DNA of 64,000 bases from positions 138,129 to 202,128 of the forward strand of contig CBDCDW010000006.1 in NCBI GenBank assembly GCA_965215595.1, in the 5' to 3' direction. The notes under the pieces are model-generated. The model made no database searches. It worked only from the letters and a program-made list of their open reading frames with translations, and had not been told where the DNA came from. This document shows, in pieces, positions 5,375 through 48,602 of this stretch. A program made the position numbers and the translations under genes. Source of the DNA: an uncultured Candidatus Binatia bacterium (lineage in GTDB: Bacteria; Desulfobacterota; Binatia; UBA9968; CAXXLF01). Position 1 is the stretch's first letter; the number at the start of each line of letters is the position of its first letter.

Positions 5375-5525
5375 CTAAAAGGTCGTCCGATCCAGGCTCC
5401 GGTATTGGATCGCCTCCGAAATATGTGCGGACTGAATGTTCCCTGACCCTTCCAGGTCCGCGATGGTTCGACTCACTTTAAGAATCCGGTTGTACACCCG
5501 GGCGCTCAGGGCAAACTTAGCGATG
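5375..5525 (-). pseudogene. Displaced duplicate of the comM 3' end. It encodes ~50 C-terminal ComM residues in frame, ending in a stop.
   Basis: Reverse complement translates to ...[50 protein letters not shown]. The intact comM C-terminus at 7948-8100 reads ...[50 protein letters not shown]. Estimated by eye at ~85% nucleotide identity, with mostly synonymous or conservative differences. Confidence 0.75.
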
Positions 5526-5947: not shown

Positions 5948-6877
5948 ATGGGGACAGAGGATTCGACAGATAAGACCGATATTATGTCCTCAATCTCCTC
6001 CTGGAAAGATAAGCGATCGGGGCGGAATACCAGCAGCGCTAACGGCGAGGAAGGAAACCACGATACAAAGCGCGTTTCCACTGGAATTCCTGACCTTGAC
6101 CTTCTCATTGAAGGAGGCTTTCCAATTGGAAAGTCTTATCTCATTACAGGGGAACAAGGCTCAGGGAAAACCGTTTTTTGTATTCAGTTTATCCTGTCCA
6201 GTCTCCTAGCGGGGGAGAGGGTTGTTTACGTCACCGTCAATGAAAAACCGGCCGAAATCGTCGCAGAGGCGAACTCCCTTGGTTGGAGCCTGCTAGAGTT
6301 TGTCGAAGAGAAGAAACTCCTGATCTTAGATGCCTCTCCCCTACTATCCACTGGCACAAGCCGAACATCCAAGGGTGAAGGGCCGGATGTAGCAAAGACC
6401 GTTGGCGATCTCGCCAACTACGTCAAGAGAATGGAGGCCTCTCGTGTTGTCATCGATCCCGTTGGTCCCCTGATTGGCTCTGCCGATTCTACGTCTACAG
6501 CGCAGGATCACACCCGTACTCTGGTCCACGCCCTACAGGATAATATGGAAACAACCAATCTAATTACCTCCAACTCCGTAAGTGGCAACAGCATATGCGC
6601 GGCTGACGGGCAGGGGATCCCGGTTAATGGTGTTGTGGCTCTCGGATTTAGCCGAAAGCAAAACGGTTTGATCCGCACCCTCTTGGTGAGCAAAATGCGG
6701 GGGACAGCCATTGATCTCATTGAATACCCCTATGACATTGTCAAGGGAAAGGGAATTGTACTCAATCCAATCATTCCCAAGGCGCCGACAACACCCGACG
6801 CTCCCACTATGTCCGCAACACCGGCCACCGAGACATCAGAAGGCGGCTTGGACATTTTTAAGGAATGGGAACCGTAG
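5948..6877 (+). CDS. Single-domain KaiC/RadA/RecA-superfamily ATPase (KaiC-like, COG0467 type)
   Basis: 309 aa. GIPDLDLLIEGGFPIGKSYLITGEQGSGKTVFCIQF (KaiC-type Walker A region), VVYVTVNEKPAEIVAEANSLGW, LLILDAS (Walker B). Confidence 0.6.
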   Translation: MGTEDSTDKTDIMSSISSWKDKRSGRNTSSANGEEGNHDTKRVSTGIPDLDLLIEGGFPIGKSYLITGEQGSGKTVFCIQFILSSLLAGERVVYVTVNEKPAEIVAEANSLGWSLLEFVEEKKLLILDASPLLSTGTSRTSKGEGPDVAKTVGDLANYVKRMEASRVVIDPVGPLIGSADSTSTAQDHTRTLVHALQDNMETTNLITSNSVSGNSICAADGQGIPVNGVVALGFSRKQNGLIRTLLVSKMRGTAIDLIEYPYDIVKGKGIVLNPIIPKAPTTPDAPTMSATPATETSEGGLDIFKEWEP

Positions 6878-7129
6878 TAAAAATAGAACTCTACAGACGC
6901 AAACCTGCGGTTTTAACCTTTACAGGTTATTGCCTGACCGACTTCATGAATCTCTCACGCGTGAAGCTTAAGCTTTGATCATCTCCAACCGCCAACTCCT
7001 AAAGAAGCAACTGCCGGACTCGATACACATACCTCAAGATCACAATTATCAACGGTAGAGATGCTCACACGCGGAACCCGAAAAGATAGTACTCGGTAGA
7101 GTAGAGGACAGGCTTAGCTTGCTTTAGGC

Positions 7130-7830
7130 CGCACCTTGGCTGTATCCGCCGTTTCCAGCTTCGTGCCCGTTTAGGCACTTCCGTAACAAGCGTTCCTGTC
7201 CCCCCTCATCAAACCGTACTTGCAGTTTTCCCGCATACGGCTTTCCGATCATCTTCATCTCAAGGCATGCGAGGCCGCCTATTGAGCTCCCTCTTGGCCT
7301 TGAGATACAGTCTCCGCTAGAGGTCTCGAATCTTGTTAGGTGTTTGTAGCCTCACGGCAATCACCTCTCCTTCCCTCTTTAAGAGACACAATGAAAGTAG
7401 GGCGCCTTCCCTCAGCCGGCATTACCCAGCCTCCTCGGTAATACTCGCCCCTCCGACTTCTCGCCCGCCTGACCCTGACTTCGGTTTCCCTTATACCGAG
7501 CCATTGCGGCTATCACCCGCGACAAACGAGATCTCCCGCGTTACCCATCACAACTTCCCCCACATGCCGTCCCGACGACCCCGGAGAGCCCATCTGCTTC
7601 TGTCTCGGTTATTTCCACAGATGGCACCGGCCTTCCCCATCTGACCACAGGGTCGGCACTCTCAATCAGCAAGTTACGAGGCTCTATGGGTTCCCTAGTA
7701 GTACGGCCTGCGAGTTTGCGATCCTCTCCTTTTGGAAAGTTTTCTCGATCCACTTAGCCCTGAGAGTCACCCCTCAAAACCAGATCTTCGCTAGCGGGGT
7801 GAACCGTTAATTCCCCGCACCGGACTTTAA
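7130..7830 (-). mobile_element. ORF-less group II intron-like RNA with a canonical domain V. Boundaries are approximate.
   Basis: Minus-strand reading of 7246-7212 gives AAGCCGUAUGCGGGAAAACUGCAAGUACGGUUU. It has the AGC catalytic triad, lower stem AGCCGUAU/AUACGGUU, an AA two-nucleotide bulge, and a GAAA-type loop. A GUGCG 5'-end candidate lies at 7820-7816 just after a small hairpin. No ORF of 80 aa or more with RT motifs lies in the ~0.7-kb span. Confidence 0.5.
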
Positions 7831-7947
7831 CCGGCAAGTTGCACTGCTTCCGCGGCATACGATCAGCCTTGCCTACTTGCTATTTACGAAGGGGTCGATA
7901 ATGACGGTATCAGGCAGGTAAATTGACTTTAGACTTAAATTGACGGG

Positions 7948-9516
7948 CTAAAATGTTCTTCGGTCCAGGCTCCGGTATTGGATCGCCTCCGAAATATGTG
8001 CGGATTGAATGTCCCCGGAGCCTTCCAGGTCAGCTATCGTTCGACTCACTTTAAGAATCCGGTTGTAAGCCCGGGCGCTCAGGCCAAACTTGGTAATGGC
8101 CGTTTCCAATAGCTTCTGCCCTTCCCCACTCACTTCACAGAACCTCTTGAGCTCCTTTGCCCCCATCTGGGCGTTGGAATGGATCTTACCCTGCTGAAAC
8201 CGCTGGGTCTGCAGGCAACGCGCAGCGTTCACCCTTTCACGAATATCGTTTGACTGCTCGCCCGGGTCCCGTGAGGCCAGGTCTTGATACTGAACGGCAG
8301 GAACCTCCACCTGAATATCGATACGGTCCAAAAGCGGACCCGAAATCTTTGAGCGGTAACGCTGGATCTGAACCGGCGTGCAGTTGCACTCTTTCTGGGG
8401 ATCGGTAAAAAATCCGCAGGGGCACGGATTCATAGCAGCAACCAGCATGAAGCCGGCCGGATAGTTCATGGACCCTACGGCGCGGGACACGGTAATGCTA
8501 CCGTCCTCCAGGGGTTGTCGCATCACCTCGATCACGTTACGCCGAAATTCCGGCAGCTCGTCGAGGAAGAGAACGCCATTGTGCGCCAAGGATACTTCCC
8601 CGGGTTTGGGGACTGTTCCTCCACCCACGAGTCCAGCATCGGAGATGGTGTGATGGGGGGAACGGAATGGCCGTGTGGCCAATAGCGGTCTCCCATTGAG
8701 AAGGCCCATGACACTGTGGATTTTCGTGGTCTCCAGGGCCTCCGGTAGGGACATATCTGACAGCACCGTGGGCAGTCTCTTGGCCAGCATTGTCTTGCCC
8801 GAACCTGGAGGACCTATCAGCAGCACATTGTGAGCCCCAGCCGCTGCCACCTCCAGGGCCCGTTTCACATGCTGCTGTCCTTTCACATCACTGAAATCTG
8901 TGTCGTAAACGGAATGTCTGCGGAAGAGTTCTTCCATATCCACTCGAGTGGGTTGGAGAGTGGGTTCACCATTAAGGTACTCAATCACCTGAGGCAGGTT
9001 CTGGGCACCAAGTACCTCCACCCCAGACACCACTCCAGCTTCAGGCGCATTGGTGACAGGCAGGATAATACCCCGGAGGCCTTCCGCCTTTGCAGCCACG
9101 GCCACAGGCAAGGCCCCGCGAACGGATTTGACCTCACCGTCGAGGGAGAGCTCGCCTAACATGAGGTAATCCCGCAGCCGGTCGTTTTTCACCAGACCTT
9201 CAGCCGCCAGGATACCCACCGCCATGGGGAGGTCATAACCAGAGCCCTCCTTTTTGACGTCGGCCGGGGCTAAATTAATGGTGATCTTCTTCGCGGGAAA
9301 AGAATAACCGCAGTTTTTTAATGCCGCGCGGATACGATCTTTACTTTCTCGAACCGCTCCCTCCGCCAAGCCCACTGTGGCCAACTGCGGTAGGCCTGAA
9401 GCGATATCCACTTCCACCTCCACCCGCAGAGCATCTATGCCATAGAGGGAAGCACTATTGATCTTTGCAAGCATCTCGGAGCCAATCTGCCATTTTGGTA
9501 ACCGGAGGGGGATCAT
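7948..9516 (-). CDS. comM: YifB/ComM family Mg-chelatase-like AAA+ ATPase
   Basis: 522 aa. N-terminal Lon-protease-like domain, Walker A LLIGPPGSGKTM, FLDELPEF, and an MCM/Mg-chelatase-like C-terminus. Confidence 0.9.
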   Translation of the reverse strand: MIPLRLPKWQIGSEMLAKINSASLYGIDALRVEVEVDIASGLPQLATVGLAEGAVRESKDRIRAALKNCGYSFPAKKITINLAPADVKKEGSGYDLPMAVGILAAEGLVKNDRLRDYLMLGELSLDGEVKSVRGALPVAVAAKAEGLRGIILPVTNAPEAGVVSGVEVLGAQNLPQVIEYLNGEPTLQPTRVDMEELFRRHSVYDTDFSDVKGQQHVKRALEVAAAGAHNVLLIGPPGSGKTMLAKRLPTVLSDMSLPEALETTKIHSVMGLLNGRPLLATRPFRSPHHTISDAGLVGGGTVPKPGEVSLAHNGVLFLDELPEFRRNVIEVMRQPLEDGSITVSRAVGSMNYPAGFMLVAAMNPCPCGFFTDPQKECNCTPVQIQRYRSKISGPLLDRIDIQVEVPAVQYQDLASRDPGEQSNDIRERVNAARCLQTQRFQQGKIHSNAQMGAKELKRFCEVSGEGQKLLETAITKFGLSARAYNRILKVSRTIADLEGSGDIQSAHISEAIQYRSLDRRTF

Positions 9517-10067
9517 ACTGAAAAACCCAGCCGGGGGGAAGAAGAATTATGGGTCTCGTCTCATGTCCCAAAAATACTAACCAAACGAGGACGAAGGGCA
9601 AAGCGCTAAGCGCAGAGCGCAAAGCGTTAAAAGCATAGCGCCAAGAGAAATTAACCGCCGATTAACGGAGATGGACACAGACGGGGGAACAGCAAAGCGC
9701 CTCTGAGTAGTACTGAGTAGCGAGTGCTGAGGACTGAGAAGGGAGGGATGAGAATCGAGTATCGAGGATTGAAGATCGATGATCAAAAAAGGGTTGAAGG
9801 AGAGATCCAGACGCTATGCGCCATGCGCTTTGCTGTGCCCTGGTCGACGCAAATCTACGGTTAAAAAATTATTTGCACCATCGCCTTGGCGCAAAAATCT
9901 TTTTTGGATTCGTTTTGGCGACGACTGATATGGGAGCATAGAACCCCACAGTCGTCTTGCCAAGAGTTGGAAATCTTGGTAAGAGTATATATGGATGTCT
10001 TGAACAAGATTACCAGAAAAACCCAGGCCTTTGTCTGGGTTTTTTTATCGTTGCTCGGAGGTAAGCC

Positions 10068-26986: not shown

Positions 26987-27299
26987 GAAATGATCCTCTC
27001 TTCCTAAGCAAATTTTGAGCAGCACGACTTCAACAAAATACTTCGTACCAAGCGCCAAGTCTCCGGAGATTTATTAACCACTGATGAACGCAGACAAATA
27101 AATCTCTTAAGATTTAAGAATTTAACCGCAGACCCACGCAGATTAACGCAGATAATTTTCTGGCCAATTTGGCCAGGAAAAAAGTCTCTTTATCTGTGTC
27201 CATCTGCGTAAATCAGGGGTCAATAGCTCCTAACGCTATGCGCTTAGCACATGTCCCTTGGCTTCCTTTGCGTCTTTGCCCCTCGATTCCCCTTGGGCC

Positions 27300-27969: not shown

Positions 27970-28046
27970 CGGGGCGTAGCGCAGCCTGGTAGCGCACACG
28001 CTTGGGGTGCGTGAGGTCACCGGTTCAAATCCGGTCGCCCCGACCA
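27970..28046 (+). tRNA. tRNA-Pro (anticodon GGG)
   Basis: Acceptor cggggcg/cgccccg, D-arm gcgc-agcctggta-gcgc, anticodon stem cacgc/gcgtg with loop ttGGGgt, T-arm accgg-ttcaaat-ccggt, discriminator A, encoded CCA. Confidence 0.88.
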
Positions 28047-45622: not shown

Positions 45623-47026
45623 TCAATCGATCCTGAGGGCCTTGATCAACCTCATGAGGTGGGTTCTGTGAAGACCTAGGACCTTTGCTGCGGCGGCACG
45701 ATTTCCATTGGCTGCTTTAAGGGCTTCGAGAATGTAATCCCGTCTGGCAGTGTCTATGGCCTCATGATAGGATATGCCGCCGGGAGCAACCTTTGGTGGA
45801 GGAGCTCCGAATCTGGCGGGCAGATCCTTTAGAGTGATTTTCTGACCCTGCCCCAACACCACCGCCCGCTCCATTACATTGGCGAGCTCCCTAACATTGC
45901 CAGGCCAGTCGTAGGCCAGTAGCTTTTCCTGAGCTTCCTTGGTCATTTCAGTCAAGTTTTTCTTGGTCTCGCGTGAAAAACGCTGCAAGAAGAAGTGAGC
46001 CAGATCGGCGATATCGTCTCTTCTCTCTCTCAATGACGGCAAATTGATGGAGATGACATTGAGGCGATGGTAGAGATCCTCACGGAATCCACCAGTTTTA
46101 ACAGCCTCTTCGAGATTCCGATTTGTGGCAGCAACAATCCGTGCATTGATTCGTATGGGCTTGGTTCCGCCCACCCGCTCGAACTCTTTTTCTTGCAGAA
46201 ACCTGAGTAGCTTGGTTTGGAGTTCGGGGGTAATATCCCCAATTTCATCTAGGAATACCGTCCCTCCTAGAGCTAATTCGATCTTTCCCTTTTTAAGCTG
46301 ATGGGCCCCGGTAAAGGCGCCTTTTTCATGGCCAAAGAGTTCACTCTCAATCAGCTCTTTGGAAAGCCCCACGCAGTTAATTGCAATGAATGGTTCGGAC
46401 TTACTCTCGCTCCAATTGTGTATGGCACGGGCAAAAATTTCCTTGCCTGTACCGCTTTCCCCCAAGAGTAGAATTGTGGCTTGACTACTCGCCGCCTTCT
46501 TGGCCAGATCGATTGCCTGATTCATCACCGGGCTCTTTCCCGCCACAAGGCGATAGCGGTTTCCCACCTCCTCCGAGAGGATTTCCATCCCCCGCTTGAG
46601 CCTTTCCCGCTCAAGGACCTTTTGCACCGTCAGGGCCAGATGGTCCGGCTCAAAAGGTTTTGGGACAAAGTCATAAGCCCCTACTTTCATGGCCTCCACA
46701 GCCCGCTCAATGGTTCCGTGGGCCGTCACAATCACCACCGGAACATGATTCTCCCTCCTCTTGAGCTCTTTGAGAACTTCAAGTCCGTTCATATCCGGCA
46801 TCATGTAGTCCAGCAGGATGAGTTCCGGACGAAACGACTCAGCTTTTTGGAGAGCTTCCAAGCCGTTGTTAGCCCGCTCAATGGTATAGCCTAAGTCCGT
46901 AAGCTCCTGCTCTAAAAGGTCCAGGTTAAATAGCTCATCGTCAACGATCAAAATTTTATTAGACATACTAGCTTTGATTTTTGATTTTGGATTATTATCG
47001 GAAAAAAGTCTTCGCGCCAAGGCCAT
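45623..47026 (-). CDS. Sigma-54-dependent response regulator (NtrC/Fis family)
   Basis: 467 aa. REC domain (DDELFNLDLL...LLDYMMPDMNG), sigma-54 AAA+ domain (GESGTGKE; GAFTGA; ESELFGHEKGAFTGA), C-terminal Fis-type HTH. Confidence 0.85.
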   Translation of the reverse strand: MALARRLFSDNNPKSKIKASMSNKILIVDDELFNLDLLEQELTDLGYTIERANNGLEALQKAESFRPELILLDYMMPDMNGLEVLKELKRRENHVPVVIVTAHGTIERAVEAMKVGAYDFVPKPFEPDHLALTVQKVLERERLKRGMEILSEEVGNRYRLVAGKSPVMNQAIDLAKKAASSQATILLLGESGTGKEIFARAIHNWSESKSEPFIAINCVGLSKELIESELFGHEKGAFTGAHQLKKGKIELALGGTVFLDEIGDITPELQTKLLRFLQEKEFERVGGTKPIRINARIVAATNRNLEEAVKTGGFREDLYHRLNVISINLPSLRERRDDIADLAHFFLQRFSRETKKNLTEMTKEAQEKLLAYDWPGNVRELANVMERAVVLGQGQKITLKDLPARFGAPPPKVAPGGISYHEAIDTARRDYILEALKAANGNRAAAAKVLGLHRTHLMRLIKALRID

Positions 47027-47362
47027 TAAGAAATATTAACCGCAGATTTCCGCCGATCATCGCAGATTAAAAATGGCAAAGAGCAGAGCGCCAAGCGTCC
47101 TGATGGATTCGGGACCACTGACTACCGACTACTGACAGTTGACCCGGATCGAAGGATTGACGACCGGGAGTCTGTAGTCCGTTGTCAGTAGTCAGTTGTC
47201 TCTTTATGCTTCTCGCTCTGTCCTCAGTACTTGTTACTCAGTACTGAGTCCGCTTCGCTCTATGCCTTCTGCCCATTGCTTCCTCTTGTCCGTAGTCCTG
47301 TTGTCAGTCGTCCTGTAGTCGTTTTTCGCTTTGCGCTCTGCGCTTTGCTGCCCTCTGCTTCC

Positions 47363-48448: not shown

Positions 48449-48602
48449 AATCCTTCTTATTTTAGATTTCAGATTTTAGATTCTTACCGATAGAATGTTC
48501 AACAGAACGACTTCAACAAAGATTTTCGCGCCAAGACTATAAAGAAATATTAACCGCAGATTTTCGCCGATTAACGCAGATAATAGCGTATTGCGCCATG
48601 TA

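Follow-up and report, generated by a model that had tools for sequence, protein, structure and literature searches.

The 64-kb stretch of DNA analysed here (64,000 nt of an uncultured Candidatus Binatia bacterium, hereafter the window) carries a complete group II intron that has no open reading frame (ORF), its reverse transcriptase (RT) gene having been lost. The intron runs from 7860 to 7096 on the minus strand (765 nt, 5′ GUAUG ... CUAC 3′) and starts 87 nt past the stop codon of a comM/yifB-like gene for a Mg-chelatase AAA ATPase (7948..9516; Pfam Mg_chelatase, ChlI and Mg_chelatase_C) on the same strand; all intron features described below are likewise on the minus strand. Group II introns without an ORF are a known kind; what is new is a variant, apparently of the IIE/IIF type, that was recently gained 3′ of comM. 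The intron is probably active, and we think it probable that it is an intact, non-autonomous element mobilised in trans, like the TeI3 introns of Thermosynechococcus elongatus.

Intron boundaries and strain distribution

An empty counterpart of the locus (L003) was recovered on a 2.19-Mb metagenome contig through an exact lookup of the ComM protein. It has the same gene content, and the spacer between comM and the next gene is 305 nt versus 1,070 nt in the window. Alignment of the two places exactly 765 extra nucleotides in the window between ...GGCAAGGCUGAUC and CGAGUACUAUC..., and the flanks are 100.000% identical over 11,656 + 7,096 nt (18,752 bases), with 0 mismatches and 0 gaps. Because the insertion is precise, the intron ends are set at 7860 and 7096; the empty-site alleles L003/L138, L137, L140 and L142, the Rfam matches and the six-domain fold agree on this delineation. 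At the 5′ end, GUAUG has A instead of G at position 3 of GUGYG and is common to all complete members of the family, full-length ones included; the 3′ end CUAC fits AY. The original prediction of a group II intron without an ORF, lying on the same strand as comM, was thus borne out in kind but not in its limits. The GUGCG (7820-7816) proposed as the 5′ end lies 40 nt inside the intron, since the empty site sets GUAUG at 7860; the true 3′ end is 34 nt beyond the predicted range end of 7130; and the short hairpin said to precede the intron (7835-7819) corresponds to a helix within domain I.

The Rfam covariance models suggested as a check both match above their gathering scores: RF02005 (group-II-D1D4-6, gathering score 49) at 7828-7569 with 93.4 bits (E 5.7e-25), and RF00029 (domains V and VI, gathering score 40) at 7245-7096 with 47.9 bits and a large insertion within domain VI. 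That the feature might be a chance hairpin resembling domain V, or a fragment of an intron, is given practically no credence here: both models are matched over their full length, domains I-IV are foldable, the six domains show covariation and the boundaries are exact.

The strain comparison set consists of seven assemblies of the species, the identical neighbouring KaiC-like protein being found on eight contigs. The site is filled in two assemblies (the window and L139, 99.7% identical across the intron) and empty in the other five. In four of these (L137, L138, L140 and L142) the empty site is precise, and L140 is the strain that diverges most (~99.1% identical); in L141 (ERZ25072854) the intron is absent and an insertion sequence (IS) element is located 71 nt from the target site. 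Because five of the seven assemblies are empty, the most divergent strain among them, the empty state appears to be ancestral and the intron a recent gain. The opposite polarity, by which an ancestral intron was precisely lost from the empty strains (a spliced cDNA might have recombined with the locus, for instance), invokes a process that is known in principle and agrees with filled and empty alleles that are otherwise identical. However, with L140 empty, and L141 empty beside its IS element, it would take several independent precise losses, or a loss followed by a sweep. A single gain common to the window and L139 is the more parsimonious account, and we consider loss very improbable.

The IS element of L141 (3720-5351, corresponding to ~7928-7931 of the window) encodes a 487-aa DDE transposase and occupies the same comM-KaiC spacer. 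Mobile elements seem to land repeatedly in this spacer, which lies between convergent genes.

Ribozyme structure, class and domain VI arm

Domains I-VI are all recovered when the window copy and ten relatives are folded to a consensus. The consensus comprises 208 base pairs, 27 of them changed on both sides, and 24 of 1,690 pair cells are broken (1.4%). Domain I (intron 1-325, 7536..7860), delimited by the RF02005 alignment and the consensus fold, has a closing helix formed by positions 6-10/321-325. Domain II (intron 326-406, 7455..7535) has compensatory changes in its helices and is followed by domain III (intron 411-461, 7400..7450) and by a domain IV remnant (intron 467-612, 7249..7394) that retains a Shine-Dalgarno and start-codon region. 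Domain V (7211..7243) had been described as textbook, which holds for its AGC triad and AA bulge, but the lower helix has 9 bp and the 4-bp upper helix is closed by a loop of five nucleotides (GAAAA) in place of a GAAA tetraloop. Domain VI (intron 654-762, 7099..7207) has a bulged branch-point A at 7102, seven nucleotides from the 3′ splice site.

The 5′ exon target (7861..7873) consists of two intron-binding sites (IBS), IBS2 GGCAAG (7873-7868) and IBS1 CUGAUC (7866-7861), separated by a spacer G (7867). The exon-binding site (EBS) EBS1, GGUCAG (intron 215-220, 7641..7646), identified from Rfam and its pairing with IBS1, is part of the DId3 hairpin GCCGACCCUGUGGUCAGAUGGGGAAGGC, whose loop contains it, and matches the final six bases of the exon 6/6; for EBS2, CUUGCU (intron 188-193, 7673-7668), the pairing with IBS2, one base further upstream, is likewise 6/6. 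Such a combination of 6/6 and 6/6 occurs at just 4 of 127,974 window positions. The original prediction had sought these pairings upstream of 7820; they were found as it proposed, along with foldable domains I-IV, but the target ends at 7861. EBS1 and IBS1 vary together between copies, as in L011, where GGUCAA pairs with UUGACC. The first base of the 3′ exon is C (7095..7095), a candidate IBS3, and C occupies +1 in 8/8 copies with a listed 3′ flank.

At positions that are invariant in its relatives, the window copy differs by 15 private substitutions. All six of those in helices retain pairing, and one of those outside helices changes CAG to UAG in the dead remnant of the ORF described below. 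These observations suggest that the ribozyme is intact, with no sign of a disabling change.

Structural hallmarks, together with the domains of the intron-encoded protein (IEP) of full-length relatives, point to the IIE/IIF type, E and F being taken jointly. The domain V loop has five nucleotides (GAAAA, GAGAA or UAAUU) in 9/9 family members folded, versus a GNRA tetraloop elsewhere. A candidate alpha (7800..7812), the terminal loop AAUUAACGGUUCA of the 5′ hairpin of domain I, is complementary to a candidate alpha′ (7598..7616), the terminal loop of the DId3 stem-loop, which includes AACCG; the complementarity amounts to 4-6 bp in a register that shifts between copies, among the only four sequences that could be scored. 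A 5-nt domain V loop and the placement of alpha′ in the DId3 terminal loop are idiosyncrasies of IIE/IIF introns (PMC3753933). Besides the 5-nt domain V loop, features in common with these classes (Toro 2002; Simon 2008; Nagy et al. 2013, PMC3753933; Toro and Martinez-Abarca 2013, PMC3552965) are a IIB-like fold with EBS1, EBS2 and EBS3, a small ribozyme, a parent-type IEP with RT and X domains and no D/En (the window copy itself being IEP-less), and the six nucleotides that separate the branch-point A from the 3′ splice site, as in Pe.th.I2. The window intron differs from them in its 5′ end GUAUG instead of GUGYG, in an expansion of domain VI by ~80 nt and in having no ORF.

Assignment to class C, with homing to a site just after a terminator, had been suggested earlier and was rejected. 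Small size, endonuclease-less IEPs and mostly intergenic locations are indeed shared with IIC introns such as B.h.I1 (PMC1702495), but IIC introns land after terminator stem-loops and are without EBS2 (PMC3753933), whereas the window copy has a 6-bp EBS2-IBS2 pairing and no upstream hairpin. A search for terminators within 6850-8100 gave no match; no stem-loop precedes the intron in any of four copies, whose 5′ exons fold no better than shuffled sequences (z -0.02 to -0.37); and the hairpin cited in favour of class C belongs to the intron.

The distal part of domain VI is expanded into an arm (7113..7194) composed of two helices with covariation at almost all positions, a motif, a conserved core (7175-7134) and a GCUG-GAAA-CGGC tip. 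Domains V and VI together measure 150 nt in the window versus 90-95 nt in the rhizobial intron L001 and the D1D4-6 intron L007, domain VI being ~60 nt longer. The motif UACGG/CCUAAA, which reads UAUGG/CCUAAG in L016, resembles the 11-nt GAAA-tetraloop receptor in sequence. Among nine close relatives, 97% of the pair cells of the arm are paired versus 35-53% in slid controls, and 10 pairs are changed on both sides, a number reached by 0/500 shuffles. In a broader set of 77 distinct sequences, which represent many lineages, the paired fraction is 91.3% versus 36-51% in slid controls and 25/33 pairs are changed on both sides, in an alignment that was guided by a covariance model and thus leans towards the model; RNAalifold applied to a MAFFT alignment of 95 arms was abandoned in its favour because the variable helices were misaligned. 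The introns that carry the arm differ in domain V sequence, and their RTs have a median identity of 37% to that of L014, a full-length relative described below. No description of an expanded domain VI arm in classes E and F was found in the accessible literature, which did not extend to Simon et al. 2008. In the B.c.I4-type introns with a 'domain VII' (PMC2691827), the extension follows domain VI and shifts the 3′ splice site, whereas the extra RNA of the window intron is inside domain VI, distal to the branch site, and leaves the 3′ splice site in its usual place.

The core of the arm (7134-7175), searched as an exact 30-of-33-nt pattern CUAAACGGGCACGAAGCNNNAAACGGCGGAUAC, is present in at least 120 metagenome stretches (L012-L131), and it is more conserved than domain V in the metagenome sample. 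A conservation of 100% was not accepted at face value, being in part an ascertainment effect of the exact-pattern search; the variant cores of L132 and L135 still match the model. Four stretches with similar flanks (L047, L082, L107 and L128) contain the core with neither a recognisable domain V before it nor a closing basal helix of domain VI, for example L128 543-665 on the minus strand (…GGACAUGGUGAACC-core-AGCCAAGGGUAUCACCUACAUUCGG…), and may represent a fragment or a module in another context. Paired modules occur close together in L083 (43-75 and 171-203), L124 (two matches) and L105 (1292-1405 on the plus strand and 1415-1528 on the minus strand), and may be tandem or nested intron fragments.

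Loss of the ORF and relatives of the intron

Among ORFs of at least 40 aa between comM and the next gene, none encodes an RT, in keeping with the earlier observation that the ~0.7 kb is devoid of such an ORF. What is left of the RT/maturase ORF is a remnant (7260..7364), recognised by translation, by tblastn and from its resemblance to the IEPs of L001 and L014, both full-length. It opens with GUG and has 26 codons that match the IEP (7364-7287), reading VIAVRLQTPNKIRDL*RRLYLKAKRE, joined in frame to LNRRPRMP*, the C-terminal part of ~8 codons; the N-terminal part is interrupted by a premature UAG at 7319-7317, and ~408 codons have been deleted at about 7286.

The parent type is exemplified by L014, a full-length metagenome intron of 1,987 nt that is 86-88% identical to the window intron on either side of the junction. 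L014 and another full-length relative, L033 (both ~87% identical), have a 1.2-kb segment precisely at the window junction, which in L014 encodes a 441-aa protein (start MIAVRLETPNKIRDLQRGLYLKAKRE, end ...YRRTRMP*) with RVT_1 and GIIM as its only domains, an endonuclease domain being absent. Because L014 has its ORF segment exactly at the junction, the window copy is identified as an ORF-deletion derivative. The two sides of the deletion now pair with each other in a hairpin (7256..7307) with a 17-nt loop, its stem being a consensus helix of 11 bp (core CUCAAGGC/GCCUUGAG) to which GAG/CUC is added. The same helix closes the 1.2-kb ORF loop in full-length relatives; everything distal to it has been deleted here, and in the short forms generally the loop-closing helix is left as a neat hairpin. 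No microhomology was seen at the deletion breakpoints, and a plausible cause of the deletion is that an RT jumped across the base of the domain IV helix.

More distant relatives offer some orientation. The best plasmid-borne IEPs are only ~45% identical to the parent IEP, whose best sequence match among solved RT structures is the GsI-IIC RT (E 5e-60). Introns of annotated plasmids were rejected as close kin, with only ~72% identity over domain IV and ~80% over domain V. Rhizobial introns, ~72% identical in DNA sequence over the domain IV and IEP-start region, have a different domain I type (D1D4-4). Two IEP relatives are labelled Candidatus Binatota/Binatia.

Two more ORF-less copies, L010 and L011, were found by a scan for the domain V sequence of this intron with one genome per species; they have the same ends, are 86-90% identical to the window copy and come from metagenome-assembled genomes classified as 'Deltaproteobacteria' and Syntrophobacteraceae, respectively, with unrelated flanks. 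A metagenome scan added the short form L053 and the 5′-truncated L016 and L106. The breakpoints of these five short forms fall within 2 nt of each other in unrelated flanks and hosts; the window breakpoint retains 11 more nucleotides of the 3′ end of the ORF, and a junction of this type (…GAGGGAGCUCAAUAGGCGGCCUCGC…) was seen at the comM locus only. In trees, short and full-length forms are interleaved: the full-length L133 nests inside the clade of the short forms L010, L011 and L053 (97%), and the window copy is outside it. A single origin of the short forms was rejected as unsupported, since a clean split between short and full-length forms has 0% bootstrap support. Because of this interleaving, either the ORF has been lost repeatedly at the same structural position, or short and full-length forms may recombine.

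The upper helix and loop of domain V in L053 and L016 read GCCU-UAAUU-GGGC versus GCGG-GAAAA-CUGC, a fully compensatory change that keeps the 5-nt loop, and these two copies share the ORF-deletion breakpoint despite the altered domain V. Copies truncated at the 5′ side, L022 (3071-3193, minus strand) from domain VI, L106 (1010-1346, minus strand) from domain III and L016 (4298-4568, minus strand) from domain IV, retain exact 3′ ends; such a pattern would be expected from incomplete reverse transcription starting at the 3′ end.

The separate breakpoint raises the possibility of decay in situ, in which a full-length autonomous intron landed after comM and lost its ORF there to become an immobile relic, capable at most of splicing. 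The position of the breakpoint, 11 nt off that of all other short forms, would then reflect a deletion peculiar to this locus; the placement of the window copy outside the L010/L011/L053 clade in the bootstrap tree also implies an independent deletion, and the ORF remnant bears a premature UAG. Against this, an insertion and a 1.2-kb deletion would both have to fit into a lineage with 0 substitutions across 18.7 kb of flanks. The site is occupied by the short form in both filled assemblies and by a full-length intron in none of the strains; the ribozyme lacks a disabling change, and short forms occupy different sites in other organisms. Decay in situ is accordingly thought unlikely, although more deserving of attention than the other alternatives discussed here.

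L010 (2198-2948, plus strand), L011 (1647-2397, minus strand) and the window intron (7096-7860, minus strand), the three complete short forms, are all situated in intergenic spacers between convergent ORFs, in sense orientation to the upstream ORF, as judged from mechanical ORF lists only.

A location of this kind might indicate a domesticated element that only splices, serving as a non-mobile cis-regulatory part of the comM 3′ untranslated region. The sense orientation of the intron in that region is what one would expect, and L010 and L011 likewise lie 3′ of a same-strand ORF between convergent ORFs; spacers between convergent genes are, however, also simply safe landing sites. The intron is polymorphic within the species instead of being fixed, its sister copies adjoin unrelated genes, and the EBS/IBS match indicates insertion by reverse splicing. 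Domestication, if anything, is even harder to credit than precise loss from the empty strains.

The last ~150 nt of comM are duplicated (5375-5525 versus 7948-8098, 88% identical). Between the two copies, intron excluded, are ~1.8 kb of other DNA with a gene for a KaiC/RecA-superfamily ATPase (5948-6877, plus strand); an integrase was not found there. The duplicated end appears to be what is left of an element that had inserted at the 3′ end of comM and brought a replacement end. The original prediction placed the intron inside the insert bounded by this duplication, and it does lie between the copies, but the relationship is incidental: the duplication is present in all seven assemblies, empty ones included, so it is older than the intron and unconnected with it. 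Elsewhere in the window, short direct repeats rich in TTAACCGCAGAT / CGCAGAT are present at 27011-27156, 47004-47070 and 48494-48584, and also at 9651-9685; one TTAACCGCAGAT-type repeat is ~800 nt upstream of a tRNA (27970-28043).

Mobilisation in trans and comparison with known systems

The original prediction left three options for the element, namely a dead intron, a mobilisable ORF-less intron or a fragment containing domain V. The fragment is refuted by the six domains and exact ends, and mobilisation fits best because the ribozyme is intact, the EBS/IBS pairings are perfect and nearly identical strains differ in having or lacking the intron. In the mechanism that we propose, the parent type bore the gene for the 441-aa endonuclease-less RT/maturase in the domain IV loop, and a deletion took everything distal to the loop-closing helix, leaving a compact ribozyme with all its catalytic domains and the domain IV start-codon region. 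That region serves other group II introns as the primary site of IEP binding. The short RNA would be transcribed and then spliced with the aid of a related RT/maturase produced elsewhere in the cell. The resulting ribonucleoprotein, guided by EBS2, EBS1 and EBS3, would have entered, by reverse splicing, the DNA site GGCAAG-G-CUGAUC|C, 87 nt 3′ of comM, where the helper enzyme would have copied the inserted RNA into DNA. Splicing, mobilisation in trans and the identity of the helper are the parts of this model that we infer.

Several points weigh against mobilisation in trans. A helper IEP was not found: no RT coding sequence is present in the window or in the available flanks of the other assemblies. 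None of the 120 closest listed clusters of IEPs (almost all sharing at least 70% identity with that of L014) was traced to assemblies of this species, and the candidate helpers P0059, P0045 and P0012 led to other samples. For the family, short forms are found at several unrelated sites (L010, L011, L053, L016 and L106), but the junction variant of the window, with its 11 extra nucleotides, is not, so its existence before insertion is unsupported. In addition, reviews generally regard IEP-less introns as having lost retromobility (PMC4424553).

A bolder proposal, which we rate as doubtful but worth stating, is that RNA structure guides a recurrent loss of the ORF in the IIE/IIF-like clade, yielding parasitic 'mini-introns', and that the domain VI arm is a new module. 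If so, parasitic mini-introns would keep arising and spreading among soil and groundwater bacteria, and the arm, with its receptor-like motif and GAAA tip, could be a tertiary or dimerisation module that aids folding or recognition with a foreign protein.

The locus is of interest in several respects. An ORF-less copy has apparently been caught just after insertion, in strains that are identical over 18.7 kb of flanks and differ by the intron only. The compact 765-nt ribozyme is a natural one with a defined 13-nt target that could be used for tests of mobilisation in trans, and the intron draws attention to a conserved domain VI expansion supported by covariation. The picture of a 'driver IEP' would also be extended, from one T. 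elongatus genome to an endonuclease-less lineage of IIE/IIF type in uncultured soil and groundwater bacteria.

The closest precedent is that of the TeI3 introns of T. elongatus (Mohr, Ghanem and Lambowitz 2010, PMC2882425), in which the domain IV ORF is deleted with remnants of both ORF termini kept, copies have breakpoints in common, and an intact ribozyme goes with good EBS/IBS pairing at insertion sites. Every feature that can be tested in the window copy agrees with TeI3. The TeI3 short forms have been demonstrated to be mobilised in trans by the IEPs of related introns (PMC2882425), whereas mobilisation of the window intron is deduced from its sequence. The TeI3 introns also belong to CL/IIB1, have endonuclease-containing IEPs, are confined to one genome and have an inferred single origin; the family of the window intron is IIE/IIF-like with an endonuclease-less IEP, is spread over several taxa and metagenomes, and has short and full-length forms interleaved. 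The ORF-less dnaN introns of Trichodesmium erythraeum (summarised in PMC12584367) similarly depend on the RT/maturase of a related intron in trans, but they interrupt a housekeeping gene and are discussed as dependent on splicing, whereas the window intron is intergenic and polymorphic, as a retroelement would be.

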